Shown: positions 12,944-34,197 of the stretch, piece by piece
Layout of the letters: every line of letters begins with the position of its first letter
How positions within the stretch are numbered: the first letter of the stretch is position 1
Origin: a virus
IMG/VR virus record: IMGVR_UViG_3300005337_000001
Location: 32,001 to 96,000 of that record
Reading direction: 5' to 3' (one strand)
DNA: 64,000 nucleotides
The notes under the pieces: model-generated
Database searches by the model: none
Seen by the model: the letters and a program-made list of their open reading frames with translations, nothing else
What the model was told of the DNA's origin: nothing
Translations under genes and position numbers: made by a program

Positions 12944-15900
12944 CAGAAGTTCTCTCCTGGGCTCGCCACATCGGGGCCTGTTGGGATGTCTGGCTGTCCT
13001 GGTGAATCAGCGTCGTCGGAGCTGAACTCGAAGTCCTTTTCATCCTGGCTCGAGCCGATGAGCTTCTCACCGCCAGCAGAGCGGCGGTTGAACTTGCGCA
13101 CCGGCAGGTCTTCACGCGCGAGATTGCGCAGGCCGCTCATCAGCGTTCCCGAGTAGCTCACGCCGTCAACGTCCAGGTTGAAGAAGGTGCTGAACTGCCC
13201 TTCGATGAGCAGGTCGATTGCTCTGTCAGCTCCCTTTTGCCTGAATGTCCCCAGCAATGTGTCGACCGGCTCTTGCGCAGGCGCCTTGTAATTTGCGAGG
13301 GCGAACTCCAATGTGTCTTGGCCCACCACCGTTGGTACATGTAACTGTCCAAAGAGGTCTGCTCCATCCGTCGTGAGAACGGCAAGGAGCTTCTTCAGGT
13401 GGTTGTTGGCATCGTTTACCATCGACACAGTCGGATTCGCATTGGTGACGATGGGGTTCAGGAACCTGGCAAGGTCTCGGAAGTAGCTGGTCTGCTGCTC
13501 TGGTTGGGCAAGCCATGCGTCGAGCTCCTCTTTGAATTGGGTGTAGTTGGCCACCTGCACCACACGAATGCGGCCGAACGGATTGGGCACGCCGAAGTCG
13601 AACGACATGACGAACGTGCTCTCGATGAGCTCGAAGAGAGCAACCACACCGAGGGCGGGCTCGAGCCCAGTGATCGTGAACGTACGGCTCACCTCGTTGT
13701 ACTGTGCTTCGTACAATTGCACGCTGTCGCCAACGACGGCTCCTGTGGGGAACGTATCGAAGTGTAGCCAGTTGGTGAAGCCGCGCACAGGCACGCCTAC
13801 GTCTATCGGATCGAGGAAGTAGTTGGCTCCCAGGCTTGCGCCGGCGTTGTCCACGATGACCTCAGAGGCCAGGGTCGTGTCCCGTGAGGCGAACGTCACA
13901 TCTTCGGCGCCGAGCGAAGCGTTGAAGAAGATGGGTAGGTCACCGTCTTTGAAGCTGGTGAGCCCGCGCTCGAGCACTAGCTCGAATGAAGCGGTCGTCT
14001 TCACGCCCTGGTCTTCGCCCACCACATAGCGACCAGCATTTGAGCCGTCGTTCACCACGAGGATGTCGCCGAAGCCGAAGCTGATGTTGGCTCCAATTTC
14101 GAAGGTCACGTCGCCAGCTGTGATGGTAGTTGGGAACGTCACGTCGATGGTCGTGTCAGTGGCTGCGATGATGAAACCCTCTTTGCCTGCGTCAAGACCG
14201 AACGTGCTGCTGCGAAGCACCACAGGATCGTTGATGTCGATGTCCACACGCTGATCTTCAGATGCGATGTTGATGGTGACGGTGGTGCCTCCCACTGTGA
14301 TGGTCCCTGTGCCTGTAACTTTGGTGAACACCACGCGCGTGGGGTCTGTCGGCTCCGAGCGCGCTACGCCCACGTACTCGAAATCGTGGAACACCAGCTT
14401 GGCGGCGAGCTTGGAGGTCGAGCCGTTGATGTTGTCGACCACGGTGGTGGCCGGCACCGGCCTAGACCTGGCCGAAGCGCCAGGGAAGAAGCCGAGCACC
14501 GAGGCTGCTACATCCTCTTCGCCGCCCGTGCGGATGAGCTGAACCGTGCGGCGTTGCGCCAGGCTGCCGGACTCGTCGGTATCGCGCAGTCTCAGCGCGC
14601 GCGCCGCTGGTCCCACCGAGATCATGGCGCCAGGCAAGGGTACCGGCACCACCGGAGCCACACCCAAGGCGTCGATGAACTGCCCACCGGGGTCGACGGC
14701 TGTTACCACCCAGGTCGTACCATCGTTGGCTCCTTCATCGACGTCCACTTCATCACCCACCACGATGCCTAAGCCCGTGAGGGAGCCGCCGAGGATAGTG
14801 AAGCGCGCGTTGTTGCCGCCCAGGCTCGTAATAACGACGGGCGAGTTGTAGCGCACAGGGAAAAAGACCTCCTCGCACACCAGCGCAGAGGCGCCGAGCG
14901 CTGCGTTGATCTCAGAGGCCACCTGCGCCGCCGTGCGCAGCCCGTTCGTGAGCGTCACGGGGAATTGAGGCAGCCCCGTGTCCACGCTTCCGAAGCCGAT
15001 GAGCAGCGCGTCACGGTCAGGGTCGATTTGAAACGGCTCGGCGAGCACGGCGGTGAGCTCGGCGATGAAGCTGAGCGGCAGCGGGTAGTCGAATGGGGCT
15101 CCGCCATCCATGGCGAAGCGGATGAATTGGTTGGCGGCCAGGATTGGGTAGGGCCCAGAGCTCGAGGAGGCGCGCTCGGCCGGCGTTGCCGGGTGCTGGG
15201 CGTCGGCGAAAGCCTGCGCCTGACCCGAAGTGGTGATGAATTCGCTCGGGGCCTGCGCCGCCCCGTACTTTGCGACCAGAGGCTGCTGGGTGATGAGGTC
15301 GAGCGCCACAGCTCGGAGGTTGTCGAGCCGGGCGTTCTCGTCCAGCGCGCTCAACTCAGTGAAATGCTGGTCCAGCACATCCCTGGCCCTCGAGATCACG
15401 CCTTGGGCTGCCACACGCGGCAGGTTCAAGCTCCCAAAGTCGGCGATGGCGTTGCTCAAGAGCCCAGCGCGCCGGATGAGCTCGCTGTGCGCCTCGGCCA
15501 TCTGCCGCACCAGCGCTGGGATCTTCGCCCTAGCCCCGGAGGGGGTGTCTACGATAGCTGACCCGCCGCTCGAAGACGAGGATGAGGAGGCTGACTGGGC
15601 CTGCTTGATGTTGGGGCCCACGGTACCGAGGAAGCCGTCGAGGTTCTGGACGTAGCGCCGGTAGGCGGGGACTTTGGTGATGTCGGAGAAGCCATCGGTG
15701 CGTGAGGAGACTGCGGCCTCGAGCTCTTCAAGTGCGCTGCGGGCGTTGGCCAGAGGTGAAAGGTCGGAGATGGGCGTTACAAGGCGGTCTGTGGCGAAGA
15801 CTGCGTCGATGAGGGATGTAACGGTAGAGGCCTGGGTTAGAGCCAGGTCTTGGAGCTTACGAGCGCCGAGGAGGATGGTGTAGAAGGGCGCGTTGAACCA

Positions 15901-16050
15901 GAGGATGTAGACGCCGGCGGCAGCCTCTTGGATGTCGGAGAAGGATACGGAAATCTTCCGGTCCCCGAGAATACCCGTAGGATGTCGAACCGTTGAACGC
16001 ACGATTTTCTCGACGGCTGCTTGTACTTCTTCGGCGGTGTAGTTGCTCAT
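12943..16050 (-). CDS. large virion structural protein (tail/baseplate-like)
   Basis: 1035 aa; helical N- and C-termini; beta-rich core with VGD.V...G.N.G..V repeats. Confidence 0.65.
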   Translation of the reverse strand: MSNYTAEEVQAAVEKIVRSTVRHPTGILGDRKISVSFSDIQEAAAGVYILWFNAPFYTILLGARKLQDLALTQASTVTSLIDAVFATDRLVTPISDLSPLANARSALEELEAAVSSRTDGFSDITKVPAYRRYVQNLDGFLGTVGPNIKQAQSASSSSSSSGGSAIVDTPSGARAKIPALVRQMAEAHSELIRRAGLLSNAIADFGSLNLPRVAAQGVISRARDVLDQHFTELSALDENARLDNLRAVALDLITQQPLVAKYGAAQAPSEFITTSGQAQAFADAQHPATPAERASSSSGPYPILAANQFIRFAMDGGAPFDYPLPLSFIAELTAVLAEPFQIDPDRDALLIGFGSVDTGLPQFPVTLTNGLRTAAQVASEINAALGASALVCEEVFFPVRYNSPVVITSLGGNNARFTILGGSLTGLGIVVGDEVDVDEGANDGTTWVVTAVDPGGQFIDALGVAPVVPVPLPGAMISVGPAARALRLRDTDESGSLAQRRTVQLIRTGGEEDVAASVLGFFPGASARSRPVPATTVVDNINGSTSKLAAKLVFHDFEYVGVARSEPTDPTRVVFTKVTGTGTITVGGTTVTINIASEDQRVDIDINDPVVLRSSTFGLDAGKEGFIIAATDTTIDVTFPTTITAGDVTFEIGANISFGFGDILVVNDGSNAGRYVVGEDQGVKTTASFELVLERGLTSFKDGDLPIFFNASLGAEDVTFASRDTTLASEVIVDNAGASLGANYFLDPIDVGVPVRGFTNWLHFDTFPTGAVVGDSVQLYEAQYNEVSRTFTITGLEPALGVVALFELIESTFVMSFDFGVPNPFGRIRVVQVANYTQFKEELDAWLAQPEQQTSYFRDLARFLNPIVTNANPTVSMVNDANNHLKKLLAVLTTDGADLFGQLHVPTVVGQDTLEFALANYKAPAQEPVDTLLGTFRQKGADRAIDLLIEGQFSTFFNLDVDGVSYSGTLMSGLRNLAREDLPVRKFNRRSAGGEKLIGSSQDEKDFEFSSDDADSPGQPDIPTGPDVASPGENF

Positions 16051-16220: not shown

Positions 16221-16613
16221 TCAGAAAGGTAGAATGCGGATGCCTTTACCTTGCCACTTGCCGTACTTGGCCAGCACTTCTTCTTCGGTTTCCATCCCAT
16301 CTAAGTACCACTTGAGCGCCAGATGTTCGAAGTACCGCCAGAGTTCGGGCGGTGTGCCACGCTCTCCCCTGAATTGAATCTGCACACCACAGGGGAGGCC
16401 CTTGGCGAAGTTGCCGCTCACCAGCTCTTCTGGGATTGCAAAAACTATTCTGCCGTTACTGGGACGACGCCAAACCCTGCCTTGCATACCAGCTGGCAGA
16501 GGCAACGTTCCGTGGGTGTTGCGCAGGGTATAGATGCTGCCTTTTCGCTTCACGAAGTGGCTCGCTAGCGCCTCCTCCATGCCTTGCGCAATGTCGTCAG
16601 GTGCTGCGTTCAT
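16221..16613 (-). CDS. hypothetical protein with AxxMExAL motif
   Basis: IAQGMEEAL at N-terminus. Confidence 0.7.
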   Translation of the reverse strand: MNAAPDDIAQGMEEALASHFVKRKGSIYTLRNTHGTLPLPAGMQGRVWRRPSNGRIVFAIPEELVSGNFAKGLPCGVQIQFRGERGTPPELWRYFEHLALKWYLDGMETEEEVLAKYGKWQGKGIRILPF

Positions 16614-16846
16614 GTACTGGACACCTTCATGGCCTTCTTGAAAGCCTTGGACTTCAAGCAGCGCTTGCAGTTCACCTTGGATGAGGCCTTACGCACAGAG
16701 AGTACGGGACCGGCTTGGATGCCACAAGCTGTGCAGCCACCAGGGCCGAGGTGCGGGCGAAAGTGGGTGGCTTTGCCAGGCAGGTTGGGTATGGGTATGA
16801 GCCCAGGGACGAAGCCGGCGTACTCCTCGTTGAAGTGCTTGGTCAT
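16610..16846 (-). CDS. small Zn-finger protein
   Basis: H...TACG...VNCKRC. Confidence 0.65.
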   Translation of the reverse strand: MTKHFNEEYAGFVPGLIPIPNLPGKATHFRPHLGPGGCTACGIQAGPVLSVRKASSKVNCKRCLKSKAFKKAMKVSST

Positions 16847-17238
16847 GTACCGGGCTCTTTCACCAAGGTCAGCTTGCGAGGCTCTTCAACCAACACATCC
16901 ATGGGATCAGCCGTGCGTGTGACCGTGCCAGCAAACATGGCCAATGCGAAGGCCTCTGGGCGCATGGTTACCGTGCCCGTGCCTTGGCGCAGCGTCTTGC
17001 CACACAAAGCGCAGGGATATTCGCCGGGCACTCCGACGGTTTTCTCTTCAGACTCCTCGTTGAAGTGACTACGGCAGACGAAAAGCCAGGTTCGGTTGGT
17101 GTAGGCAGCGGCGAGGCCCGGGCCTTTGGCAGTGGGGTCTGCCATCCTGCTCGAGCCCCTCATGAGCAGCTCGTAGGCTGCCAGCTCTTCGCCTGTGTCA
17201 GCTTCGATGGTGCCATCGGGTAGCTTGCGAATGGTCAC
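16843..17238 (-). CDS. hypothetical Zn-binding protein
   Basis: GTGA overlap; C..H...CxxC. Confidence 0.6.
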   Translation of the reverse strand: MTIRKLPDGTIEADTGEELAAYELLMRGSSRMADPTAKGPGLAAAYTNRTWLFVCRSHFNEESEEKTVGVPGEYPCALCGKTLRQGTGTVTMRPEAFALAMFAGTVTRTADPMDVLVEEPRKLTLVKEPGT

Positions 17239-17645
17239 GTCGGTTCCCAGCCTTTCGTTCCTTCGGCTTTCATGTGATCGTAGACGCGGAGAAAAGCTAC
17301 ATCGAGGTCGAGCAGCGGCCCTTGCCAGTTCCACTCGGGGTCGTCAGCGGTCCACCACACCATCACGATGATTGGTATCTCCGGTGTGCGGTCTAGCACC
17401 ACGCGGTAGTCAAGCGCCCAGCCCGTTGCGAGCGACAGCTCGAGGTGCTTGTTGCGCGCTTCGATGAGCCAGCTCGCAGCTACCTGCGGGTCGTCGAACG
17501 CCAGGCAGGTGAGCTCGAAGCGTGCAGCTTTCCAGGCACGGACGTCTCCCGTCTCTTCGAGCGTGTAGATGGTAGCGCCGAGCTTCATGTCATAGACCGA
17601 CCAGAAGTTGGCTCGGCGCGGTTGGATGAGCGCGTTCATAGACAC
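17235..17645 (-). CDS. hypothetical protein
   Basis: tiled ORF. Confidence 0.65.
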   Translation of the reverse strand: MSMNALIQPRRANFWSVYDMKLGATIYTLEETGDVRAWKAARFELTCLAFDDPQVAASWLIEARNKHLELSLATGWALDYRVVLDRTPEIPIIVMVWWTADDPEWNWQGPLLDLDVAFLRVYDHMKAEGTKGWEPT

Positions 17646-17947
17646 ATGGGTTCTTCCTCGTAGACGTACTCTGCCGGGCCACGACGCCGGCGACAGATAG
17701 GGCCATGGAGATTGCCGTAGCGCCGCTGCAAAAACAGGAATACAGCGTCGGGGAAAGCGTGGCCGCCACCATGCTCATGCTCGAGCTCGCAGCGTTCACC
17801 GCCGCTCTCGAAGTAGGTGCACTGTGGTAGCGACGGTACATGGAGCACAGCAAACACACGGCCCTGCTCACAAACAGGGACAGCAGTCGCTACGCTGTGG
17901 AGCCGCACCGGCGGCTCAATAGGCAAGAGGCGGTAGCCGTAGCTCAC
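17636..17947 (-). CDS. Cys/His-rich hypothetical protein
   Basis: tiled ORF. Confidence 0.6.
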   Translation of the reverse strand: MSYGYRLLPIEPPVRLHSVATAVPVCEQGRVFAVLHVPSLPQCTYFESGGERCELEHEHGGGHAFPDAVFLFLQRRYGNLHGPICRRRRGPAEYVYEEEPMCL

Positions 17948-18186
17948 GTGCTCTCCTCAACCGGCAACTTGGCCAAGCAGGCTGGGCAGGTCACCTTCGC
18001 ATCGTCGAAGGTGTAGAGCGGGGTCTTGTCGGAAATGGGCGTGCCGTCCGACCAATCAGCGCGGTGCACGTCCTCAGGCAAGCCAGGGGGCTGGTTGTAA
18101 ACGTAGTACTCTTCCTCGGTGCAAAGCAGCGTCACGTAGGGCTGCGAGGCGTACTGACAGGCGTGAATGGGATCGGTAATGCTCAT
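17944..18186 (-). CDS. small Zn-finger protein
   Basis: HAC...C...VTCPAC. Confidence 0.65.
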   Translation of the reverse strand: MSITDPIHACQYASQPYVTLLCTEEEYYVYNQPPGLPEDVHRADWSDGTPISDKTPLYTFDDAKVTCPACLAKLPVEEST

Positions 18187-18422
18187 GCGAACCTCGGTGC
18201 TGAAAACTCGTTCGGTTGGAGACCGTCGCTAGCTGCTAGCGCATCTTCCATGCCCTGGGCCAGGAAAGCCTCGGACGCTCGGCATGCAGGGCAGTCAACA
18301 CGCTCGCGGTGGACAGAACGGTTGTGCATGTACGCGAAGAGCCCGCAACCAGTCTTGGTATCGTTGTAAGCCTTGTCGGTGGTCACGTCCAAGAAGTGGG
18401 TGTAGGTCAAGGTCAGGCTCAT
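18183..18422 (-). CDS. small Zn-finger protein with AxxMExAL motif
   Basis: TGCG...VDCPAC then LAQGMEDAL. Confidence 0.7.
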   Translation of the reverse strand: MSLTLTYTHFLDVTTDKAYNDTKTGCGLFAYMHNRSVHRERVDCPACRASEAFLAQGMEDALAASDGLQPNEFSAPRFA

Positions 18423-18610
18423 TTGACAGGCCCCGGAAAGTGCATGGCCAGCGCGCCCGGATCAACAAGGTCACCGTCGAGGCTGAACGTGCTCTTGTAC
18501 TTGGTGAAGCCACGCAGCGTGGACATTTCGATGCGCACCATGCCGGTGTGCTTGGCCAATAGCCGCAGGTCGCTGACTACCAGGGTCCAACCTTGCTCGG
18601 GCTGGCTCAT
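18419..18610 (-). CDS. hypothetical protein
   Basis: ATGA overlaps. Confidence 0.55.
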   Translation of the reverse strand: MSQPEQGWTLVVSDLRLLAKHTGMVRIEMSTLRGFTKYKSTFSLDGDLVDPGALAMHFPGPVK

Positions 18611-18798
18611 GTACTTGCCTTCATCAGTGCAATTTCACGTGGTGTAAAGGGGCCATGCTCGCTGTGTTTAGCCACAACTTCAATAGCGCTTGCGAGAGTG
18701 GATTCGTCGCCGTGCTTGAATAAGGCTTTGGCTACACCCAAGGCATGCTTCAGCCTGGGTGGAAGCTCAGGTTTTGGTGCTGGGCGATGCGTGCTCAT
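18607..18798 (-). CDS. hypothetical protein
   Basis: ATGA overlaps. Confidence 0.55.
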   Translation of the reverse strand: MSTHRPAPKPELPPRLKHALGVAKALFKHGDESTLASAIEVVAKHSEHGPFTPREIALMKAST

Positions 18799-19042
18799 CG
18801 CCAGCCCTTGGGCATCTTCGTCGGCAGTGTAGCGCCCAGCGGTAGTTTGAGCATGGACGCCTTGATCTGCACCTCCATGCCGTCGATGGCGCGCTTGCAG
18901 GCCTGACGAGCGAGCTGGAGCTGCATACGCATGTCGGCGAAGACCTCGGTCTTGGAGGCGTCATCGACATGTCTCTTGGCTAGGTCGAGCGCGGTTTGTA
19001 TTTCGTCGAATCTCATTTGATGTAGTCCTTCTTGAAGCTCAT
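18795..19042 (-). CDS. helical hypothetical protein; start split by a probable 1-nt deletion at 19016-19018
   Basis: ATG 19042 (TAATG overlap) gives MSFKKDYIK, which continues as MRFDEIQTAL if one A is added. Confidence 0.55.
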
Positions 19043-19380
19043 TAACCTCTGAGGAGCTTCTGGATTTCGGCAGTGGCGTCGGTGACTCCATCGTCGAAGA
19101 CTTTGAACGAAGACTGCTTCATTGAGGCTAGAATGTCGGAGGGGTAGATAGTTTCGAAGAACGATGAGCCAGGAGCTTTAGGTAACCGGTCGCCGTTTCT
19201 ATTCGCTGGCGCCTGCAGCGCTTCCTCCATGCTTGCAGCCTGCGCGTCTTCGAACACAGGGGTGTCTTGGCAGTGCGGGCAGTCGGTGAGCTTGACGTCA
19301 CGGGTGAGCGATAGGTCGTAGCTGATGAAGACGTGACAGGCGGTGTACTTGTCGTCAGCTCGATAGAAGTGCACGGTCAT
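19042..19380 (-). CDS. small Zn-finger protein with AxxMExAL motif
   Basis: HFY..TAC...TDCPHC then QAASMEEAL. Confidence 0.7.
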   Translation of the reverse strand: MTVHFYRADDKYTACHVFISYDLSLTRDVKLTDCPHCQDTPVFEDAQAASMEEALQAPANRNGDRLPKAPGSSFFETIYPSDILASMKQSSFKVFDDGVTDATAEIQKLLRG

Positions 19381-19384
19381 GTGC

Positions 19385-19600
19385 TCACCGATCCCAGAAG
19401 ACGAAGCCTTGACTGTGCCTACCCTGGTGACCTGGCTTGAGCTTGCACGAAAAATTGGACCAGCGGTGGCCGCAGAACTCGGAGGTAGGGTACGGGCGTG
19501 TATTGAGCTCAGCACGTAATGTATCCAAGAGCCGTTCAGCCCAACCTACTGCAGCCACTAGCTCTTCGGTGGTCATGTCCGCGGGACGCTTGGTGTTCAT
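19385..19600 (-). CDS. hypothetical protein
   Basis: ATG 19600; C-terminal C..C....H.G.H. Confidence 0.55.
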   Translation of the reverse strand: MNTKRPADMTTEELVAAVGWAERLLDTLRAELNTRPYPTSEFCGHRWSNFSCKLKPGHQGRHSQGFVFWDR

Positions 19601-19974
19601 GTAACAGCTGCTCCAATGACATCGCGCGCAAGCATGTCGTTGAACATGCGGCGTACCGCAATGCACTGCCGATCGCCAGGGTTCAAGGCCTTCTTGCAGA
19701 TGTCGGGGCGCTTCTCATAGATGGAGCAGCTCACCTGCTTGCCGATGGAGCCTCGTAGGCTTACGCACCTGCAGTCCTCGGCGCCCTTGAGCGGACCCGT
19801 CTTGTTGAGAGTAGGCCTCGTGCGGATCTCGCTGTTGATGACGTTCAGCCGCACGTAGCGCCGGCCCAGTTTCTCTTCATCCTTGGGCGTCAGGTTCACG
19901 TAGGTGTCACTCCACGTAAGTGAGACACAACAGATGCCGCACTTGCGGCAGTCGGCTGATGTGAGCTTGGGCAT
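19597..19974 (-). CDS. YkgJ/CxxCxxCC-family Zn/Fe-chelating protein
   Basis: CRKCGICC...C..L....CSIYEKRPDICK. Confidence 0.8.
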   Translation of the reverse strand: MPKLTSADCRKCGICCVSLTWSDTYVNLTPKDEEKLGRRYVRLNVINSEIRTRPTLNKTGPLKGAEDCRCVSLRGSIGKQVSCSIYEKRPDICKKALNPGDRQCIAVRRMFNDMLARDVIGAAVT

Positions 19975-19976
19975 GC

Positions 19977-20324
19977 TCAAAGACCCAACTCGAACCTAGC
20001 CGCTTTGATTGCTGTGAGCGAGATGTGTGAAGGTATATGGTTTTGGAGAGCGTGGATGTCACGACAAAACTCCCGCCAGGTCTCGAGGAGAAGTCTTTCT
20101 GCAGCACGTTCCTCCAGGCTGAGCCAGACTGAGCCGTTGCGGCTGTCCGGATGTAGCGTCTCGATGTCGAAGCGCCCTTGAGAGTGTGAGAACCTTGAGT
20201 CAGGGTACTTGTACTCCGCCCACTTGCGCCCAATTTTGCTGATCTCGTACTCGGTTGGTTTGCCGCGGTCGAAGTCGTGCTCGACGAATACACGCTGGCC
20301 TACCTTCAATTTGTGCTTGTTCAT
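19977..20324 (-). CDS. beta-barrel hypothetical phage protein
   Basis: LKVGQRVFV..YEISKIGRKWA pattern. Confidence 0.65.
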   Translation of the reverse strand: MNKHKLKVGQRVFVEHDFDRGKPTEYEISKIGRKWAEYKYPDSRFSHSQGRFDIETLHPDSRNGSVWLSLEERAAERLLLETWREFCRDIHALQNHIPSHISLTAIKAARFELGL

Positions 20325-20326
20325 CT

Positions 20327-20863
20327 CTACTCCAGGTGATGCGGGCCTTCAGCACGGTATCGTTCGAGCTCCTGCGGCGTAGCGCCAGTGAGGCGCGTCT
20401 TCTTGCCCACACCATGCTCAAAATTGGCTTTGTGATGTCGAAACGCTTCAGCCTCGTACTCGAGCGCCACCATCTGCGTGGAGCCCCAGCCAGCTACCTC
20501 GATGGTCCACACGTGCGGCACCCACTTCTCGATTTTCTCGAAGGCCTTCTCCATGAAGCCAAAGCTGGGCTCGCCTTCGGTCTCTTGCTTCTCGATGAAG
20601 CCATGCTTGACTAGGCTTTCGAAGTCAGGGTGGAAGAAGGGGTTGGTAACCCACCAAGCAATGGGATTGGGCACAGGCTTGGCGGTGATCGCTTCTTGCA
20701 TGAGCTCGCCCATTCGCTTGAGCGAGATGAACTTCCACTCGTCCCCGTCTTTGGAAAGCGTCCAGATGAGTAGCGCCCCAGCGCATTCTTCTTCGCTGTG
20801 TCCAAAGGTGGCGGTGAGCGGCGGCATGTCGAGAATCACAGCACTCGGTTTGTAGATGGGCAT
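20327..20863 (-). CDS. hypothetical protein (contains MEKAF)
   Basis: ORF; start chosen at ATG 20863. Confidence 0.65.
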   Translation of the reverse strand: MPIYKPSAVILDMPPLTATFGHSEEECAGALLIWTLSKDGDEWKFISLKRMGELMQEAITAKPVPNPIAWWVTNPFFHPDFESLVKHGFIEKQETEGEPSFGFMEKAFEKIEKWVPHVWTIEVAGWGSTQMVALEYEAEAFRHHKANFEHGVGKKTRLTGATPQELERYRAEGPHHLE

Positions 20864-20865
20864 GT

Positions 20866-21102
20866 TCAATCCCTCATTGGAGCCAGAATCCAACGCCACT
20901 CGTCGGGCCAGCTGTCGTCTTCGTAGATAGGACGTATACCCTCACCAGGAGGGTTGCCAAGAAAGGTGATGGCCCGGTTGTTAACCTGAGCTATGTGCGC
21001 GTTCCAGAAAGTGATGCCAACCGGTGTGAGGATCACGATGTCCTGCCGACCCCGCACTGCTAAACGCGGGTCATCGTCACTCCAGTTCGGCTCACCCCGC
21101 AT
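20866..21102 (-). CDS. hypothetical protein
   Basis: tiled ORF. Confidence 0.5.
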   Translation of the reverse strand: MRGEPNWSDDDPRLAVRGRQDIVILTPVGITFWNAHIAQVNNRAITFLGNPPGEGIRPIYEDDSWPDEWRWILAPMRD

Positions 21103-21301
21103 CTTCGGGCTCGTCTTTCGTCGTGAACTCGTCACGCGCGGCGTAGTCTCGGATTTGGAAGCTGCCGGTGATGGGCAGCGAGTCGAGCTTCACGTTGATG
21201 GAGCCATCAGTATTCTCGAAGGCCACACCGATGCGTGTCCAGTACTTTTTGCCGTTGCGCTCGGTGATGTTGTAGCAAATTTTGTGCTTGCCGTTGCTCA
21301 T
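21092..21301 (-). CDS. small conserved protein (K.YW.RIG.AF.N.DGS.NV.LD.LP family)
   Basis: motif recalled from small myxobacterial and phage SSB-like proteins. Confidence 0.7.
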   Translation of the reverse strand: MSNGKHKICYNITERNGKKYWTRIGVAFENTDGSINVKLDSLPITGSFQIRDYAARDEFTTKDEPEDAG

Positions 21302-21510
21302 GTGTACCTCTGTCCTTTCAAGCAGCCTTCAGTTCGTTTGTAGCCGTCCACCTTGCGTCTCTTGTCCCACGTAAGCAGCTCATGAAAGAGCTTGCAGCTC
21401 ATGTTGCTGTTGGCCGTGCCCTCCATCCAATCGCAGTCGTTCGAACAGTGCCCGTTGGTGGAGGTGGTCACGTCAACGCCCACCACGACCGGCAGTATCT
21501 TGCGGTTCAC
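21298..21510 (-). CDS. Cys-rich hypothetical protein
   Basis: HCSNDC..C.LF....R...C. Confidence 0.6.
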   Translation of the reverse strand: MNRKILPVVVGVDVTTSTNGHCSNDCDWMEGTANSNMSCKLFHELLTWDKRRKVDGYKRTEGCLKGQRYT

Positions 21511-21866
21511 TTATCCCTCACAGGGCGAAACAAGGGGCGCTGGCCGCGTGCGAGCATGCGCTTGCGCATCTCGAGAGAGATTTGGTAGGCCGTGACGCTC
21601 TCGCGTTCCTTGAGCATCTCGTCTCTGATCTCGTCCCACTCCTTGCACTCGTTCGCCCACTGCTGAAGCTGCTCTTCAGTGAGGTCGCAGGACTTGAGCT
21701 CAGGCTCGCCCTCCACCATCTTGCTCTGGTCGATGCCACAGGAGCGGCAGCGTCCATGGAGACGTAGGCCAAGCTGCCCCATCTCTTCCACCTGACCGTT
21801 ACAAGCCAAGCAGATCCACGCATCGGTTTCTTCGGCCATCTCACAGTCCTTCCATACTTGCGGCAT
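21507..21866 (-). CDS. Zn-ribbon hypothetical protein
   Basis: CLAC...CRSC. Confidence 0.6.
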   Translation of the reverse strand: MPQVWKDCEMAEETDAWICLACNGQVEEMGQLGLRLHGRCRSCGIDQSKMVEGEPELKSCDLTEEQLQQWANECKEWDEIRDEMLKERESVTAYQISLEMRKRMLARGQRPLFRPVRDK

Positions 21867-22095
21867 TGGTAGGCCAATGCGTTCCAAGAAGAGACAAGCA
21901 CTCACCTCTATGCAGATTCTCCAGACAGCAAGATTCGCTTGTGATAGGCGAGACGGAGGGGCAACCCACCTTTTTGGAGCTACCGTTGAGGTTCTCGAGA
22001 GCGCGCTCAAAGCGATCGAGCGGCGCTTCGTACTTCATGTACTGCTGATGCCTGTGCCGCTTCTTACGCAGCGCACGCTTCTGCAGCTTGTTCAT
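21841..22095 (-). CDS. basic hypothetical protein (FERAL variant motif)
   Basis: ATGA overlap; K/R-rich N-terminus. Confidence 0.55.
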   Translation of the reverse strand: MNKLQKRALRKKRHRHQQYMKYEAPLDRFERALENLNGSSKKVGCPSVSPITSESCCLENLHRGECLSLLGTHWPTNAASMEGL

Positions 22096-22289
22096 CGCCG
22101 CCTGAGCCTTTCAAGCTCCGCTTTGTACTTCTCAGCCAGGGTGTAGGTGCCTGCTTTGTCGTACCTACGCATGCGTCTGCCGTCGATCTCGGCCTGACTG
22201 GGCCGGCTCAGCGCATCCTCCATGCTCTGTGCAAGCGCTTCGTCGAGCAGCATCTCACGCACATGCTCAGGTAGTTTTGCTTGTTTCAT
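22092..22289 (-). CDS. small protein with AxxMExAL motif
   Basis: LAQSMEDAL. Confidence 0.65.
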   Translation of the reverse strand: MKQAKLPEHVREMLLDEALAQSMEDALSRPSQAEIDGRRMRRYDKAGTYTLAEKYKAELERLRRR

Positions 22290-22654
22290 CAGATGAAGTT
22301 GGCAGCATCATCGAGCGCCACCCAGTATGCTGCGCGCCCCCTGATCCTAGATGGCCGTACTCGATACCCCGCTGTCAGCGGAAGCATCAACTGCGTCCAC
22401 GGTTTGGTGGAGCTCATCGCTCGAAAGCGCTCGAGGTCGTAATCGTCGATGAACTTGCGCTGCTTGTCTTCAGGTATGTCTCGCCACTGCCCCAACACCT
22501 CCTCGTAGTACGACTTACCAGCGGCGCGCAGCGGGTAGCCCATGTACTCGCTAGACCAAGACGTACCCCAATCGATGAAGCGGTACGGAGCCAAGAGGGC
22601 AAGCTCCATGTCGTCAGCCATGAGCTCATTGAAGGGCAGCACAAGTTGTCGCAT
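22289..22654 (-). CDS. hypothetical protein with AxxMExAL motif
   Basis: MADDMELAL. Confidence 0.65.
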   Translation of the reverse strand: MRQLVLPFNELMADDMELALLAPYRFIDWGTSWSSEYMGYPLRAAGKSYYEEVLGQWRDIPEDKQRKFIDDYDLERFRAMSSTKPWTQLMLPLTAGYRVRPSRIRGRAAYWVALDDAANFI

Positions 22655-22945
22655 TTACGTGGATGGGCCGACGTAGTTGAAGCGATACACAGGCGTCTCG
22701 ATGTGCGTGTTCTCTTCTAAAGTAGAGCGTAGGTAATCGTGGCGGATGAAGTCGCTCCACGAGTCCTTGCCTTCGGTGGCCCATTCACGCAGGCGCGTGC
22801 GCCCCGTCTCCCCGCACACGTACACCACAAAAAGCTCATCGGTGTCATGGTGCGATGTCAGGAACAGCGCGACGTACTTACCAGGACGCTTGTGGTGCGT
22901 GTAGATGCCGGGCTTGAAGTTCTTCGGGTCTTGGTATGGTTGCAT
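22655..22945 (-). CDS. DUF1653-like protein
   Basis: GIYTHHK..KY..L....H.DT.ELFVVY...R.R...W. Confidence 0.65.
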   Translation of the reverse strand: MQPYQDPKNFKPGIYTHHKRPGKYVALFLTSHHDTDELFVVYVCGETGRTRLREWATEGKDSWSDFIRHDYLRSTLEENTHIETPVYRFNYVGPST

Positions 22946-22951
22946 GGATCC

Positions 22952-23299
22952 TCAGTACGGTTTCAGGGGTTTGTCGTTGGGCTCGCGCACAGCACGTGCC
23001 TCTGCTTCGTCTTCTAGCCCATGGAAGAACCACTCGGTAGCTTCCGGGTAGAGGTGGGTCTCAAATTTATCACTGAAGTAGCGCAGCTCGAGCTCGGCCT
23101 TTGCTTGCCCTTCATGTCTGATGCGCACGTCACACTCCTCGCCAACACGCGGGCCTTGCCGGTGTGCGTTCTGCACGACGTACTTCATCCACGGCGTGTA
23201 GCCGTCGTGGAGCGCGCGCTCCATACGCTCGGCCATGATGTCTTCGACGTCGGCGACGATCTCTTCCAGCCCTTCCGGGCTTCTCACTTTCGCGTTCAA
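22952..23299 (-). CDS. hypothetical protein, paralogue of 23296 gene, AxxMExAL motif
   Basis: MAERMERAL; WFF.G.E.EA..R...PY end; TTG start overlaps upstream TGA. Confidence 0.6.
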   Translation of the reverse strand: MNAKVRSPEGLEEIVADVEDIMAERMERALHDGYTPWMKYVVQNAHRQGPRVGEECDVRIRHEGQAKAELELRYFSDKFETHLYPEATEWFFHGLEDEAEARAVREPNDKPLKPY

Positions 23300-23712
23300 T
23301 AGGGCCTCATCTTCACCTTGATAGCAGTAGGGCGCACGGTGTAGCCCTCGTATAGCTTGCGCACCTTCGCCTCGTTTTCGATGCCTTCGAAGAACCACAT
23401 ATGGCGCTTCGGTCGATGCAACCGTGACCACTCCAGCTGCGGGAAGTCGGTAGCCCCTATCCCATCAACCCACGGCTCTGGATGTGTAGTTGGTGCTTGG
23501 GTCAGCGCGTAGCGCAGCAGAATACCAGCACGACCTGAACTCTGGGTGTAGAAGCGTACTACGCAGAGCTGGTCCTTCTTGCCGTACTCGTTGTGGCTGC
23601 TGCGCGTGATGTAGTAGTACCAACCGTTGGTGAGCGCAGCTTCCATACGCGCGGCAGGATCTACAAGTTGTTCTTCAGCGCCGCCGCGGTGCACTTTTGT
23701 ATGAAGCCCCAA
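23296..23712 (-). CDS. hypothetical protein, paralogue of 22952 gene, AxxMExAL motif
   Basis: PAARMEAAL; WFFEGIENEAKVR...PY end. Confidence 0.6.
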   Translation of the reverse strand: MGLHTKVHRGGAEEQLVDPAARMEAALTNGWYYYITRSSHNEYGKKDQLCVVRFYTQSSGRAGILLRYALTQAPTTHPEPWVDGIGATDFPQLEWSRLHRPKRHMWFFEGIENEAKVRKLYEGYTVRPTAIKVKMRPY

Positions 23713-23947
23713 ACTTTCTCACTTTCTCCTCCAAGTCCTCCAGCAGGTCGTGCAGCTCGGAGCTGCTCCTGCGCGAGTCGACTAAGAGGGATGGTGCCGT
23801 ACCAGCGGGCCCGCCGAAGTTTGAGGGCTTCCCCCGCTCCGGCGGTGGTCCGGCAAGGGCTCGCTCCATACCTGCAGCAAGCTTGCCATTCTTCAAGTAC
23901 CAGCCTTGGTATTTCCTGGCATAGAGCTTTTTCTTTCGACGACTCAT
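23675..23947 (-). CDS. basic small protein with AxxMExAL motif
   Basis: SD GAGG and TGATG junction; LAAGMERAL. Confidence 0.65.
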   Translation of the reverse strand: MSRRKKKLYARKYQGWYLKNGKLAAGMERALAGPPPERGKPSNFGGPAGTAPSLLVDSRRSSSELHDLLEDLEEKVRKFGASYKSAPRRR

Positions 23948-24263
23948 CAGGCCTCTTCGAATACGTATCGGCCAGCGCGTAGGTGCGAGCCAATATGCGG
24001 CACTCGAGCGCCGCATAGTCGATCGTGCCGGTAACCAGCATCTCGTCGTGGATGAACGTCCCCGCAATCATCTTTTGGAGAGGGGTCTTTCGTATTCCCT
24101 GACCGCCGTAGACGGTTTCGAAGTCGAAGGGGATGAGCCCCGAAGGCTTAGGCTCACGAAATGCTTTCTCCATCCCGGCGGCGAGCTTGTCCTCGTAGGC
24201 CTTGAGCCTCAAGTACCGCCTGAGCTTGCGCTCTTTCTTGGAGCGTCGCCTAAGCCTTCGCAT
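23947..24263 (-). CDS. basic small protein with AxxMExAF motif and PolA motif-A-like peptide; probable 1-nt frameshift near 23986
   Basis: LAAGMEKAF; IDYAALECRILA; shifted frame ends HLRAGRYVFEEA* at the TGATG junction. Confidence 0.55.
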
Positions 24264-24567
24264 ATTGCGGGCACCCTTCGTAGTGATGCTCGCCCTTGCT
24301 GGCCTGCAGCGACAAACGTTGCTCTTCGGGGAAGCGGTGCGGATCACATCTGCAGGTAGCTGCCAGCACGTCCATAGTCTTCTTGATCACTGCAACTTGT
24401 ACTAGCTCTGTCACAGCACGACTCTTGGCTTGCTCGAAGGCTGCAACAGCATCTTCGTAGGAACCTCCAGTGGCGCGCACCCAGACGAGACGCAGCTGAT
24501 GCTCAGACTCCAAAATCCTTTCGAAACCGCTCGCTAGCTCTTCGTCGCTCTTCGTTTCGTTCGGCAT
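24250..24567 (-). CDS. hypothetical protein, paralogue of 24503 gene
   Basis: SDEELASGFERIL..H.L....G.SYEDA. Confidence 0.65.
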   Translation of the reverse strand: MPNETKSDEELASGFERILESEHQLRLVWVRATGGSYEDAVAAFEQAKSRAVTELVQVAVIKKTMDVLAATCRCDPHRFPEEQRLSLQASKGEHHYEGCPQYAKA

Positions 24568-24799
24568 CGGTCATCGCCTCCTCTCGCTTGCGACGTTCTG
24601 TGATGAACTCAACGGTGCCCTTCCACGCCTCCTCGTAGGTGTAACCCTTGACCACCTCCATGTACAGAAGCGTGTGCCTGTGGAAGAGCCGCCCGTCAGC
24701 TGAATCGACGAGCGCCTTCTCCATGCTCGCAGCTAGCTCTTCATCACTCAGCTCGTCTGAGGATTCCTTTTCGAGGTCTTGCGACTGGGGTTGTGTCAT
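24503..24799 (-). CDS. hypothetical protein with AxxMExAL motif
   Basis: SDEELAASMEKAL..H.H.L...GYTYEEA. Confidence 0.65.
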   Translation of the reverse strand: MTQPQSQDLEKESSDELSDEELAASMEKALVDSADGRLFHRHTLLYMEVVKGYTYEEAWKGTVEFITERRKREEAMTDAERNEERRRASERFRKDFGV

Positions 24800-25106
24800 C
24801 TTCCACCTTGCGCTGACCAAGGAAGGCCTTGGCCTGGAGCACGGTCTCCTGCGTGCCGTTCTTGATCTTGGCACCAAGAATACTCGTTTCCTCGGGCTGC
24901 AGCTCGATGATGTGCAGAAGCTCCTTGATGAGGGAGGGCGCTTCATCTAGGCGCCAGGTCTCCTCCCGCAGCGCTTTGACTGCGCGCACCAGCGCACGAC
25001 TGCCCTTGGTGTGGACAACGCTCGGGTGCGACTCGAGCTCGTCGACGCACTCGAAGGCCGCACGGAGCACGCGCTCCTTCAGCAGGTTCACAGAAGCAAT
25101 GCTCAT
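24744..25106 (-). CDS. helical hypothetical protein
   Basis: ATGA overlap. Confidence 0.6.
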   Translation of the reverse strand: MSIASVNLLKERVLRAAFECVDELESHPSVVHTKGSRALVRAVKALREETWRLDEAPSLIKELLHIIELQPEETSILGAKIKNGTQETVLQAKAFLGQRKVEDDTTPVARPRKGILRRAE

Positions 25107-25936: not shown

Positions 25937-26717
25937 CGCCAGTGCTCCTAGCGTCGGGTGATGAGTCGGCGAGCTCGTCTTTGTCCATAGGTTCCACGTT
26001 TTGGACGGTGACTTCCCACCCATCCTCTTCGAGCTGTTTTACAGCCTCGCTCACCTGATCGTCCACCGGCGTCGCCTCTTGACCATCGTCGATGACGCTC
26101 CAGTTGGGATCGCCCGACATCTTGCGCTCGACCAGCAGCTCCACGTTGTACACGGGCTCGTTGAACATCCTCGCCTGGTCGACAACCTCTTCCGAGCTCA
26201 GATTGGTCAAAAACTCGCTGATGCCAGGCTCTGTGCCGTTGAAGTCCTTACCCGTACATTCTTTGAAGAGCTGCTTGCGTTCTTCGGGCAGAAGCACGAT
26301 GACACGCATCTCGTCCATCACCCACCAGCGCTTGGTGTGATGCTTGAACCACCAATCCAGTAGGGACTGTAGCGACGGCGCATCGGCTACGGTGTAGCTG
26401 TCGGGCGCGTCCTGGTCCTCGTAGGCGTCGATGAGAAGCTGCTGCGCACTTGGCGCTTCCAACTGCACCGGCTTGCAAGGGATGAGCACGTAGGGGATGT
26501 TGATCTCGTCGATCTCAGGCTCGAAGTTCTTGCGCTCGAATGCGCCAGCCTCTTCGAGAGTCTGAAAGTAGCCCTCGTCTTCGTGAGCTTCCCACTGGAA
26601 GAAGCCCTCGGGGTGTTCGTCTTTGAACTGCTCGAGTGAGATGCGCTCCTCACCCGCATGCTCCTTGGCTACGTGCAGAGGCAATCGTCGAATAGCTTCA
26701 AGCAAAGGTGTCGTCAT
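25863..26717 (-). CDS. acidic hypothetical protein
   Basis: ATGA overlap; D/E-rich C-terminus. Confidence 0.75.
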   Translation of the reverse strand: MTTPLLEAIRRLPLHVAKEHAGEERISLEQFKDEHPEGFFQWEAHEDEGYFQTLEEAGAFERKNFEPEIDEINIPYVLIPCKPVQLEAPSAQQLLIDAYEDQDAPDSYTVADAPSLQSLLDWWFKHHTKRWWVMDEMRVIVLLPEERKQLFKECTGKDFNGTEPGISEFLTNLSSEEVVDQARMFNEPVYNVELLVERKMSGDPNWSVIDDGQEATPVDDQVSEAVKQLEEDGWEVTVQNVEPMDKDELADSSPDARSTGDDVSDDEDEEDAEDTEEADEVSDD

Positions 26718-27553: not shown

Positions 27554-27561
27554 CTTGCCTC

Positions 27562-27972
27562 CTAGCAGTTTGCGTCGACGAGCACACCGCACTCATCACA
27601 GCAGCGATCGAGCGCTTCCTTGGCATCACTCCAAAGCGTTGTCATAAAGCCGCTCAGGTACGGCAGGTCAGGGTAGTTACTAGCGTTGGCTTGTACAACC
27701 AACGGTGCGTTGGTCTGCGCTGACAGCGCGATCTCCATACTACGTGCAGTGCAATGCTGGCGATGGCAACGCCAACACACGACGCAGCCGTTGCTGAACG
27801 TGTAGCCGATGAGCAGGTGCACAGCCTCTGACAGCACTCCGCCCCAACGAATCTCACCGCAGTAGGTACATTCCCAACCGCTGTGGAACCGAGGGGGCGG
27901 GTTCACTTCGACGCACTGCGCGTGCGTCTTGCAATTCTGACAGGGGCTGACGGGCTTGACCCGTCGAGTCAT
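27562..27972 (-). CDS. multi-CxxC Zn-binding protein
   Basis: several CxxC pairs. Confidence 0.6.
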   Translation of the reverse strand: MTRRVKPVSPCQNCKTHAQCVEVNPPPRFHSGWECTYCGEIRWGGVLSEAVHLLIGYTFSNGCVVCWRCHRQHCTARSMEIALSAQTNAPLVVQANASNYPDLPYLSGFMTTLWSDAKEALDRCCDECGVLVDANC

Positions 27973-33801: not shown

Positions 33802-34197
33802 CTATCTTCGCACGAGAGGAACGCGTGGCACCAAGTAGCCGTCGTCGGTGACTTTGTTGGCGCGCATGTCGACCCCGTACTTCGCCCCGAGCTTAGTGAG
33901 AAGCTCGCTGGCTTCGAAGCCAATCTGGTTTGCCTCACCCTGCGATCGTTGAAGCTCCCTGGTGTACATGGTGACCTGGAGCTCCGCGTAACTGGCGCGA
34001 GACCCCAGCAGTTTGTACTCCAGAAGATCTTCCCTGTCGATCTTGATGGGCGCCGACGGCTCGGTGGGCGTGGACGCCTCTTGTGCGCCAAAAGCTGCTT
34101 CGGCCTGCTGTACGACGCGGTCGAGTTGATCCTCCATTCCCTGCGCCACTTCGGGACTCGGCGGCCCTCCACCCAATCTATTTTCTGAGCTTTCCAT
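33802..34197 (-). CDS. coiled-coil hypothetical protein
   Basis: tiled; VAQGMEDQL variant motif. Confidence 0.65.
   Translation of the reverse strand: MESSENRLGGGPPSPEVAQGMEDQLDRVVQQAEAAFGAQEASTPTEPSAPIKIDREDLLEYKLLGSRASYAELQVTMYTRELQRSQGEANQIGFEASELLTKLGAKYGVDMRANKVTDDGYLVPRVPLVRR

Follow-up and report, generated by a model that had tools for sequence, protein, structure and literature searches.

A recurrent A-x-x-M-E-x-A-L helix on neighboring small proteins of an uncultured phage: a possible portable docking module

An uncultured phage encodes, side by side, about a dozen small proteins that share a short A-x-x-M-E-x-A-L motif; their genes belong to a single co-directional block that lies downstream of a strand switch. 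The motif is strongly enriched in this block, is under selection as a peptide, sits at different places on largely unrelated protein bodies, and changes in concert across families within individual genomes. We infer that it forms a helix that would bind in trans to a single partner, and we give about an even chance to its being a modular, portable docking helix for one common partner.

Concentration of the motif in a block of small genes

Six-frame translation of the window, i.e. the whole stretch of 64,000 nucleotides analyzed here, yielded 13 matches to ME.A[LF], every one on the minus strand, with M codons at 16580, 18251, 19230, 20554, 22223, 22609, 23224, 23646, 23869, 24173, 24724, 27738 and 36355. 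All ten strict minus-strand copies reported by a first-pass annotation of this DNA were recovered at their positions, as were the variants that it had listed. In the complete phage genome (195,580 bp) 12 of the 23 six-frame matches to the pattern [MF]E.A[LF] fall within the 8.5-kb stretch of the first-pass annotation. In 5000 residue shuffles of the 31 genes (3609 aa) of the block, ME.A[LF] had a mean of 0.10 copies (maximum 3) versus 11 observed, and A..ME.A[LF] 0.010 versus 10 observed. An unsupervised scan of gapped four-residue patterns ranked A..ME.A (10 proteins) and ME.AL (9 proteins) at the top, against a shuffle maximum of 4, and a motif HMM run over all six frames of the 195.6-kb genome found nothing above 7.5 bits outside the block, the structural genes included. 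The enrichment is real, and stronger than first stated. The genes concerned, together with one non-carrier neighbor, are as follows:

16221..16613, minus strand: g16613, 130 aa, WFF superfamily, IAQGMEEAL at residues 8-16 (M codon 16580)
18183..18422, minus strand: g18422, 79 aa, H-C-C-C zinc-ribbon, then LAQGMEDAL (M codon 18251)
19042..19380, minus strand: g19380, 112 aa, zinc-ribbon family of g18422, QAASMEEAL mid-protein (M codon 19230)
20327..20899, minus strand: g20899, 190 aa, uncertain carrier, weak variant FGFMEKAF at residues 123-130 (M codon 20554)
21841..22095, minus strand: g22095, 84 aa, K/R-rich leader, then variant LDRFERAL (F codon 22011)
22092..22289, minus strand: g22289, 65 aa, 'YTLAEKY' family, LAQSMEDAL (M codon 22223)
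22289..22654, minus strand: g22654, 121 aa, N-terminus MRQLVLPF, then MADDMELAL (M codon 22609)
22952..23431, minus strand: g23431 (WFF-a), MAERMERAL (M codon 23224), true start probably downstream of 23431
23296..23712, minus strand: g23712 (WFF-b), 138 aa, PAARMEAAL (M codon 23646)
23675..23947, minus strand: g23947, 90 aa, conserved K/R leader MSRRKKKLYARKYQ, LAAGMERAL (M codon 23869), Pro/Gly-rich linker
23661..24266, minus strand: g24266, K/R leader, LAAGMEKAF (M codon 24173), then FDFET, FIHDE and IDYAALECRILA
24250..24567, minus strand: g24567, 105 aa, acidic leader, variant LASGFERIL (F codon about 24525)
24503..24802, minus strand: g24802, about 99 aa, acidic leader, LAASMEKAL (M codon 24724)
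24744..25106, minus strand: g25106, 120 aa, non-carrier given for context
27562..27972, minus strand: 136-aa multi-Cys protein beyond the span of the first-pass annotation, CHRQHCTARSMEIAL (M codon 27738)
33802..34197, minus strand: 131-aa ORF, peripheral variant VAQGMEDQL near the N-terminus (M codon 34137), weak HMM score of 3.6 bits
36146..36514, minus strand: 122-aa ORF, CxxC zinc finger, then variant LLEEMEEAL (M codon 36355), HMM score of 6.5 bits

The membership of g20899 is uncertain because Ala is missing at position 0, and no orthologue of it was found in the relatives. In g24266 conservation stops near 23850 (alignment A5, with L003, L004, L012, L005 and L008) and the frame remains open through g23947; the carrier gene at 23675-23947 shares sequence, in another frame, with the carrier ORF that ends at 23661.

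Anatomy of the motif

Regular-expression scans collected 66 copies from seven genomes (the window, L003, L004, L005, L012, L013 and L014), all 66 of them in coding orientation within the syntenic block, which lies upstream of a gene for a 1035-aa protein. They define the consensus D-[DE]-x-L-A-x-x-M-E-x-A-L, which, with 9-12 residues and few fixed positions, has the dimensions of a short linear motif (SLiM; 3-12 residues). Met is present in 59 of the 66 copies, Ala at +6 in 51 and Leu at +7 in 53, while Ala at 0 and Glu at +4 are set by the search pattern and hence are not independent counts. Asp or Glu account for 62-73% of residues at -4 and -3, and Pro or Gly for 20-40% at +9 to +13; half of the copies have Ser, Gly or Ala two residues before the invariant Glu. 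The fixed positions draw on every one of the four Ala codons, on both for Glu and on five for Leu. Since codons differ in this way among copies, the constraint acts on the peptide and not on the DNA, as had been proposed; the nucleotide identity, wobble positions included, that is expected of a DNA-level repeat was not seen, synonymous codons varying freely.

By arithmetic, a helix brings the fixed positions -1, 0, 3, 4, 6 and 7 into an arc of some 160 degrees, in agreement with the earlier placement of A, M, A and L on one helical face, with the variable positions 1, 2 and 5 facing the other way. AF2 places the motif within a helix in both families modeled; in g18422 (pLDDT 81) it lies inside helix 51-66. 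Its place in the protein varies: it is N-terminal in most families, internal after a zinc knuckle in others and, in L013 and L014, a C-terminal tail that the stop codon follows after 1-7 residues. As to accessibility, some copies are terminal tails and Pro or Gly come just after the motif, yet the helix beside the zinc-ribbon has an AF2 pLDDT above 90.

Relatedness of the carrier bodies

The ten strict carriers represent about seven families, such that the original description as ten mostly unrelated carriers was overstated. With the motif masked, hhalign joined only three families, F1, F2 and F3 (g16613, g23431 and g23712), at 95%, 86% and 61%, with g16613 linked to g23431 at 86% and to g23712 at 61%; g23712 is a paralogue of g23431 (E 4e-6). 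All remaining family pairs stayed below 10% and ten further family profiles are unrelated, although the profiles are shallow (2-6 sequences each) and a very remote shared ancestry of further bodies could lie below their reach. The description of the bodies as mostly unrelated therefore stands for these profiles, as is typical of a SLiM, and fails for the WFF trio and for g18422 and g19380, which are paralogous zinc-ribbons. In an alignment of the latter family (A2, 16 members) H9, C26, C44, C47, A55 and E59 are invariant. Within the WFF superfamily, to which further g16613 paralogues belong (two or three in L004, one each in L012 and L013), the helix is found in all 28 known clusters; there it is constitutive, and thus inherited and not added. 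BLAST and motif-masked hhalign gave no sign of bodies alignable outside the motif across all carriers, i.e. of the single diverged paralogue family that would have undone the first-pass reading, and no carrier matched any family in Pfam or PHROGs.

Conservation in relatives and genome-specific dialects

The syntenic block was taken from relatives whose kinship was gauged by the identity of the 1035-aa neighbor gene. Six relatives with 58-77% identity in this gene have 3-13 motif copies each, whereas five with 30-52% identity have no copy and one at 45% has weak forms only. Among the relatives' loci all 35 strict matches lie in the block and none in the equally gene-dense 10 kb downstream. The motif is thus limited to a narrow sub-clade of uncultured phages with genomes of about 200 kb, and its absence at 52% identity or less means that it is no essential, ancient trait of these phages.

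Where it occurs, the motif is kept in orthologues and is usually their best-conserved segment; in 10 of 11 families its conservation exceeds that of the remaining protein (e.g. 0.58 versus 0.16), as SLiMs are relative to their flanks; the proteins themselves are only 36-77% identical across genomes that conserve it and the locus is hypervariable. Good conservation among g22654 orthologues is limited to the N-terminal 25 residues (identity 0.56 in the motif versus 0.20 in the rest). A..[MV]E is retained in g22289 orthologues from L004, L005, L012, L013 and L014, and A..ME in those of the 136-aa multi-Cys protein from L004, L012 and L013. The variants have counterparts too, namely LDKLETSI (L004), LDSLEQAL (L012) and LDRLEMAL (L014) for g22095, and ARDFERIL (L004) and AQRFEEIL (L012) for g24567; g23947 has orthologues in L003, L004 and L012.

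Two genomes show dialects of their own. In L005 Ala at +6 is found in none of 8 copies versus 51 of 58 elsewhere (Fisher p 1e-6), and in L014 Ile or Val replaces Met in 4 of 7 copies versus 3 of 59 elsewhere (p 0.0015), these statistics counting copies as independent when some are recent paralogues. Both shifts span different families and the codons differ among copies. Such genome-wide dialects argue for one shared partner, and are the pattern that co-evolution with a single trans-acting partner would predict.

A proposed docking helix and its alternatives

We propose an amphipathic helix of about 12 residues, usually ending at Pro or Gly and composed of an acidic N-cap (D-D/E) and a core phi-A-x-x-M-E-x-A-L. 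Its hydrophobic face (L-1, A0, M3, A6 and L7, bordered by Glu4) would fit into a groove of the common partner. Evolution would have retained this tag on, or transferred it among, no fewer than eight unrelated types of small accessory protein: H-C-C-C zinc-ribbons, K/R-leader proteins, the 'WFF' beta-domain superfamily, the 'YTLAEKY' family, a QLxLPF-leader family, acidic-leader proteins, the multi-Cys protein and, in one relative, repeat-domain proteins. These differing bodies, several of them resembling nucleic-acid binders, would thereby be brought to the same hub. The first-pass idea of docking to one partner gains from the dialects shared by different families, but the partners then named (RNA polymerase, a protease or adaptor, a compartment, the capsid) are guesses. 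Our own first guess, an unlikely one at best, is the transcription machinery, because the phage encodes its own fused beta-beta' RNA polymerase and a sigma factor. Another candidate partner is g25106, the best-conserved small gene (54-79% identity among close relatives, alignment A4), which lies directly upstream of the first carrier in 7 of 7 motif-bearing genomes; the link is weakened because the motif-free L006 has it too.

The carriers might instead bind each other, their helices packing as homo- or hetero-oligomers so that the carrier set itself is the 'common partner' and the product a mixed complex of small nucleic-acid-binding modules. Enrichment, unrelated bodies, conservation and helical periodicity apply equally here, dialects are equally expected of helices that co-evolve mutually, and the small Ala at 0 and +6 would permit close helix-helix packing. 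However, at roughly one and a half heptads the conserved stretch is short for a stable coiled coil, and we consider such a zipper, also raised in the first-pass annotation, rather improbable.

Of comparably low probability is a structural helix retained by descent, without any common partner, whereby one or a few ancestral small proteins would have spread by tandem duplication and domain shuffling, each descendant retaining the helix as a stabilizer of its own fold. The genes do form tandem arrays and the profiles merge three carrier families into one superfamily with the helix in every member. In the WFF and zinc-ribbon families the helix could pack on its own domain, given its presence in all WFF clusters and the high AF2 confidence directly after the zinc knuckle. 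Against this, the ten further profiles are unrelated, N-terminal, internal and C-terminal placements all occur, the g23947 helix adjoins a Pro/Gly-rich linker with no domain to pack on, and identical substitutions appear across different families within one genome.

Less probable again is a tag for capsid targeting and/or for the prohead protease, comparable to the CTS of T4 internal proteins, by which diverse small proteins would be loaded into the prohead, possibly cut after the invariant Glu, and injected with the DNA. The T4 CTS is strictly N-terminal and the prohead protease removes it after a Glu. The phage locus is likewise hypervariable, Glu is present in 66 of 66 copies (the search pattern fixing this position), and the Ser, Gly or Ala two residues before it in half of the copies resembles the S/A/G-x-E sites of giant-phage proteases. 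However, not every carrier has the motif at its very start: in the zinc-ribbons some 16 copies lie inside the protein or at its end, after residue 50 or as a C-terminal tail. Its helical i, i+3/4, i+7 spacing reaches the prime side (A6, L7), unlike the extended P4-P1 recognition typical of proteases, and in K/R-leader proteins the part to be cut off would be the most conserved one. Nor did the HMM find a copy in any large structural gene, as a cleavage motif of major head, scaffold or portal proteins would require, and Pfam searches of the genome gave no match at E<=1 to the prohead proteases S77 (T4-type) or S78 (HK97-type), though a divergent protease could escape them. Chance recurrence or a translated DNA-level repeat (a regulatory site or recombination scar) found no supporting point and is refuted by 11 copies versus 0.1 expected, scrambled wobble positions, the in-frame, coding-strand location of all copies and conservation among genomes whose proteins are 36-77% identical.

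Parallels with known systems

The docking helix that we favor shares with the T4 CTS the setting of a short conserved peptide on diverse, fast-evolving small phage proteins at a hypervariable locus; the CTS is the sole common feature of the T-even internal proteins IPI, IPII, IPIII and Alt (PMC3012670). The CTS acts through the scaffolding core, to which all of its bearers bind. The phage helix differs in being also internal and C-terminal, in its helical periodicity, in its absence from head genes and in a genome where Pfam searches detect no T4-type protease gene. In the degradosome, short conserved segments within poorly conserved, probably disordered sequence of the RNase E scaffold recruit proteins (PMC11964227); there one scaffold bears many different motifs for many partners, whereas here many proteins bear one motif.

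The K/R-rich leaders T-[KR]-R-E-R-[KR] of g23947, g24266, g22095 and their relatives, which precede a short helix, are in our view reminiscent of the arginine-rich-motif leaders of lambdoid N proteins. Pfam detected no homology of these carriers to the N antiterminator, and, unlike N, most carriers have acidic rather than basic leaders.

Varied placement on unrelated proteins is also a trait of hub-binding SLiMs found in the replication proteins of bacteria, the beta-clamp-binding hexapeptide (e.g. Hda QLSLPL) among them; these peptides of 5-12 residues, N-terminal, C-terminal or internal, recruit all their bearers to one hub (PMC3836487). The consensus does not match the clamp-binding patterns QL[SD]LF or QLxLx[LF], A-x-x-M-E-x-A-L being helical and acidic, and a search of the phage genome for a clamp of its own found none. 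The g22654 family has a QLxLP[FI] N-terminus besides the motif, and carriers in one relative bear repeat domains that look Tudor/SH3-like by eye.

Concentration of the motif in one block of small genes

The first-pass annotation of this phage had reported an A-x-x-M-E-x-A-[LF] helix shared by ten neighboring, mostly unrelated small proteins between 16221 and 24799, and had placed the constraint on the peptide and not on the DNA. A scan for ME.A[LF], which did not demand the preceding alanine, recovered 13 matches in the window, all on the minus strand, with the ten reported copies at the positions given in that annotation; 12 of the 13 carry an alanine three residues before the methionine. Within the 31-gene set of the block ME.A[LF] is observed 11 times against 0.10 expected from residue shuffling, and A..ME.A[LF] 10 times against 0.010, while an unsupervised count of gapped four-residue patterns ranks A..ME.A and ME.AL at the top. 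The concentration also holds genome-wide: 12 of the 23 matches to a relaxed pattern searched in six frames lie inside the 8.5 kb of the block, and a profile HMM of the motif gave no match above 7.5 bits elsewhere in the genome, structural genes included. A motif profile had no meaningful match among PDB sequences. The copies differ at synonymous sites, and hence are not a DNA repeat, in agreement with the proposed peptide-level constraint; chance and a DNA element are thereby excluded by the shuffle expectation and the synonymous differences, respectively. Use of the invariant ATG as an internal translation start was likewise rejected, since orthologs keep the residues preceding it at the protein level and the methionine is replaced by isoleucine, valine or leucine in some copies.

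Genomic context and distribution in related phages

The source genome is a complete 195,580-bp IMG/VR phage with direct terminal repeats and 60% G+C, of which the window covers bases 32001-96000. Comparison of its DNA and of the large neighboring protein found no cultured relatives among GenBank phages, and the best GenBank phage match of its large terminase (TerL) is 28% identical. Single-protein scans of IMG/VR with one motif carrier, a 306-aa gene and the 1035-aa gene gave no match, and that with TerL a sole 4.6-kb contig. The motif block, which lies downstream of a strand switch near 28 kb, comprises about 30 short, tightly packed and often overlapping minus-strand genes between two boundaries:

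26714-27592, 292-aa protein with a topoisomerase-type zinc ribbon
12943-16050, minus strand, conserved 1035-aa protein with no assigned function

Genes for ThyX, RNase HII and, at 38058-38819, a sigma factor are found further along the minus strand. A promoter and terminator scan of the block did no better than on shuffles, and gene starts could not be fixed from a GC3 frame plot, which was too flat. The 1035-aa protein belongs to no Pfam or PHROGs family. Its 58 homologs, at 31-77% identity, in many cases lie on contigs 186-203 kb long and mark out a sizeable clade of large phages that are uncultured. The protein begins with MSNYT, a start common to several of the small neighboring genes (M-x-x-Y-T...Q-L-P).

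The relatives were sampled through the 10-kb flanks on both sides of ten of these homologs, together with two further loci from MAG collections. The block is syntenic in them, with a zinc-ribbon Top1-like gene, an ortholog of g25106 (a 120-aa protein lacking the motif), small genes and the 1035-aa gene.

Motif copies in syntenic loci of relatives, with the identity of the 1035-aa neighbor gene
L003, 77%: 7 strict copies
L004, 70%: about 11 copies (6 strict plus variants)
L012, 70%: 13 copies
L013, 67%: 7 copies
L014, 63%: 3 strict copies and 4 with Ile/Val for Met
L005, 58%: 8 copies of the variant form A-A-x-M-E-x-x-[IL]
L008, 45%: weak A..[ML]E..phi forms only
L006, L007, L009, L016 and L017, 30-52%: no copies

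All 35 strict matches in these loci are on the coding strand within the upstream block; the small-gene blocks on the downstream side of the 1035-aa gene, though just as dense, contain none. L016 and L017 (1035-aa gene 30-32% identical) come from MAGs that bear the names Rhodoferax and Anaerolineales; they are probably phage sequences caught up in the binning, and the MAG names give no firm host.

The 66 copies collected in total yield the consensus [DE](62%)-[DE](73%)-x-[LIV](67%)-A-x-x-M(59/66)-E-x-A(51/66)-L(53/66), in which the core alanine (position 0) and the glutamate (+4) were imposed by the collecting pattern, so that their invariance is no independent count. Proline or glycine follows three to seven residues beyond the motif at frequencies of 20-40%.

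Families that carry the motif

Orthologs were aligned for 13 families and their profiles compared after masking the motif. Three small genes, g23431, g23712 and g16613, still join (probabilities of 95%, 86% and 61%) as a superfamily (WFF) marked by the element W-F-F-x-G-x-E-[DN]-E at the C-terminus, and every other pair stays below 10%. The carriers thus do not belong to one family, but the families are fewer than ten. g18422 and g19380 are members of an expanded H-C-C-C zinc-ribbon family (16 members aligned, with four invariant metal ligands), g23947, g24266 and g22095 have K/R-rich leaders in common, and g24802 and g24567 look like paralogs by eye. The motif therefore sits on at least eight bodies between which the available profiles detect no relation.

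Neither Pfam nor PHROGs, searched with all carriers and neighboring genes, offered a family for any carrier, and none of the carriers tested has a cultured-phage relative. When the WFF superfamily profile was run by HMMER against the full set of 1.84 billion cluster representatives, it retrieved 28 clusters only, in all of which the N-terminal helix is present. A word-based search with g16613 found only itself, g16613 and g23712 had no usable match in the ESM Atlas, and the AF2 model of the superfamily (pLDDT 61) is of too low quality to be used. The zinc-ribbon genes of the window are:

18183-18422, minus strand, H-C-C-C ribbon protein (g18422)
19042-19380, minus strand, H-C-C-C ribbon protein (g19380)

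These ribbons span about 50 residues and occur in 2-4 copies per genome. Their model had no structural match above Z 2.2 in Foldseek PDB and VIA-align wide searches, and might possibly represent a new small zinc-binding fold.

Conservation, helix geometry and lineage-specific variants

In 10 of 11 ortholog families the nine motif residues are better conserved than the remainder of the protein, and in the g22654 family conservation is almost limited to the N-terminal 25 residues. The placement of the motif varies: it may be N-terminal, after acidic, K/R-rich or QLxLP leaders; internal, eight residues beyond the second zinc knuckle; or C-terminal, as in several L013 and L014 proteins (MEEALARD*, MENALKVAGL*, MEELLK*, MEKILEQRRAT*). 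On a helical wheel the fixed positions -1, 0, 3, 4, 6 and 7 fall within an arc of about 160 degrees and the variable positions 1, 2 and 5 on the opposite side, consistent with the single helical face envisaged earlier. Such spacing suggests a helix face as the recognized element, in contrast to the extended strand of a protease site. The AF2 models place the motif within helix 51-66 in the zinc-ribbon family (pLDDT 81) and, at low confidence, within helix 5-21 in the WFF family.

Two of the relatives have dialects of their own. Alanine at +6 is found in none of the 8 L005 copies as against 51 of 58 elsewhere (p 1e-6), and Ile/Val replaces Met in 4 of 7 L014 copies as against 3 of 59 elsewhere (p 0.0015), p values to be read with the copies being not fully independent. 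Each shift extends over different families, with codons that vary between the copies. The same substitution in unrelated proteins of one genome fits a single co-evolving partner.

Possible functions of the motif

To our knowledge, hardly any of the small early genes in large uncultured phages has a known function. The reading best supported here, to which we give about an even chance, is that of a portable amphipathic docking helix that would bring a varying group of small accessory proteins to a single putative partner. A more specific and somewhat less probable proposal is a peptide address code private to this uncultured clade of ~200-kb phages, with the 12-residue helix directing a changing repertoire of some ten small takeover proteins in each genome to one hub. 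Candidate hubs would be the beta-beta' RNA polymerase or the sigma factor encoded by the phage itself, a hub of the host or a receptor for packaging, and the dialects would arise because the code co-evolves with its hub.

The dialects are equally compatible with mutual association of the helices, the carriers binding one another, which we regard as unlikely. Comparably improbable is a structural helix that was inherited without any shared partner: the helix is constitutive in the WFF superfamily and is modeled with high confidence adjoining the zinc ribbon, but the dialects are hard to explain if each helix packed on its own body only. The T4 internal proteins, a diverse set with only a capsid-targeting sequence (CTS) in common (PMC3012670), are a real precedent for a short peptide common to otherwise unrelated phage proteins, yet a T4-like capsid-targeting or cleavage tag is quite improbable here, given the C-terminal and internal copies, the helical spacing of the conserved positions, a genome-wide HMM search that gave no copy in head genes, and the failure to detect any S77 or S78 protease.

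As far as our searches of Pfam, PHROGs, PDB and the literature reach, the motif, its carriers and the phage clade have not been described previously. A shared, selected tag ties about ten ORFan proteins per genome into one functional group and predicts their convergence on one partner, thereby reducing unrelated ORFans to the question of what binds the helix. Hub-binding motifs are exemplified in bacteria by clamp-binding peptides (PMC3836487). Should the docking helix bind a hub of the host or of the phage, its motif would rank among the few family-wide short linear motif codes in bacterial viruses, and new clients could be recognized in metagenomes from sequence alone; were the address code true, it would offer a handle for finding the hub together with all its clients.

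Individual carriers and neighboring genes

The g22654 family has an M-x-Q-L-x-L-P-[FI] N-terminus in all four genomes, with the A..ME.AL helix four residues further on:

22289-22654, minus strand, window gene g22654
L003 5300-5656, L004 5863-6330 and L012 6067-6528, orthologs

This N-terminus shares the form of the N-terminal beta-clamp-binding hexapeptide of Hda, QLSLPL (PMC3836487), a likeness by which g22654 might link the sliding clamp of the host to the putative partner of the motif. No clamp gene was found in the phage genome.

In the conserved mini-protein family of g24266 a K/R leader and the motif are followed by the elements FD[IF]ET, HVHDE and [AI]DYA[SA]xExR[IV][LM]A, which look like the family A DNA polymerase motifs Exo I, C and A, but arranged in the wrong order:

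about 23850-24266, minus strand, window gene g24266
L003 3872-4330, L004 3943-4446 and L012 4499-5005, family members
L005 5221-5643 and L008 3906-4160, further members

The likeness has no statistical support: Pfam gave nothing, and a profile search of the PDB listed Pol I no better than E 0.93, amid unrelated matches. The PolA of the phage itself is intact, with normal motifs. At 23661-24067 (minus strand) and at L003 4146-4579 the polymerase-motif-like frame remains open for about 95 codons through g23947, which is read in another frame, and in L004 and L012 this gene and the K/R-leader gene orthologous to g23947 are separate; the open frame is either chance in G+C-rich DNA or a real overlap.

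Many of the carriers begin with R/K-rich leaders such as T-[KR]-R-E-R-[KR], at:

23675-23947, 23661-24266 and 21841-22095, minus strand, window
L005 6424-6621, relative
L008 3906-4160, 4992-5198 and 8471-8749, relative

We take these leaders to be reminiscent of the RNA-binding arginine-rich motifs of lambdoid N proteins, with which they have no detectable homology.

The non-carrier g25106 (24744-25106, minus strand) is the best-conserved small gene of the block, with 54-79% identity in close relatives, and its product is probably helical with a basic tail. It is always directly upstream of the first motif carrier and is a candidate partner for the motif, but its presence in the motif-free L006 counts against this.

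At L005 8815-9997 the motif precedes a repeated beta-rich module (...DRVRAY...C..GTV...) that looks Tudor/SH3-like by eye. Two L005 proteins each have two such helix-plus-module units, which indicates that the helix duplicates together with the domain.
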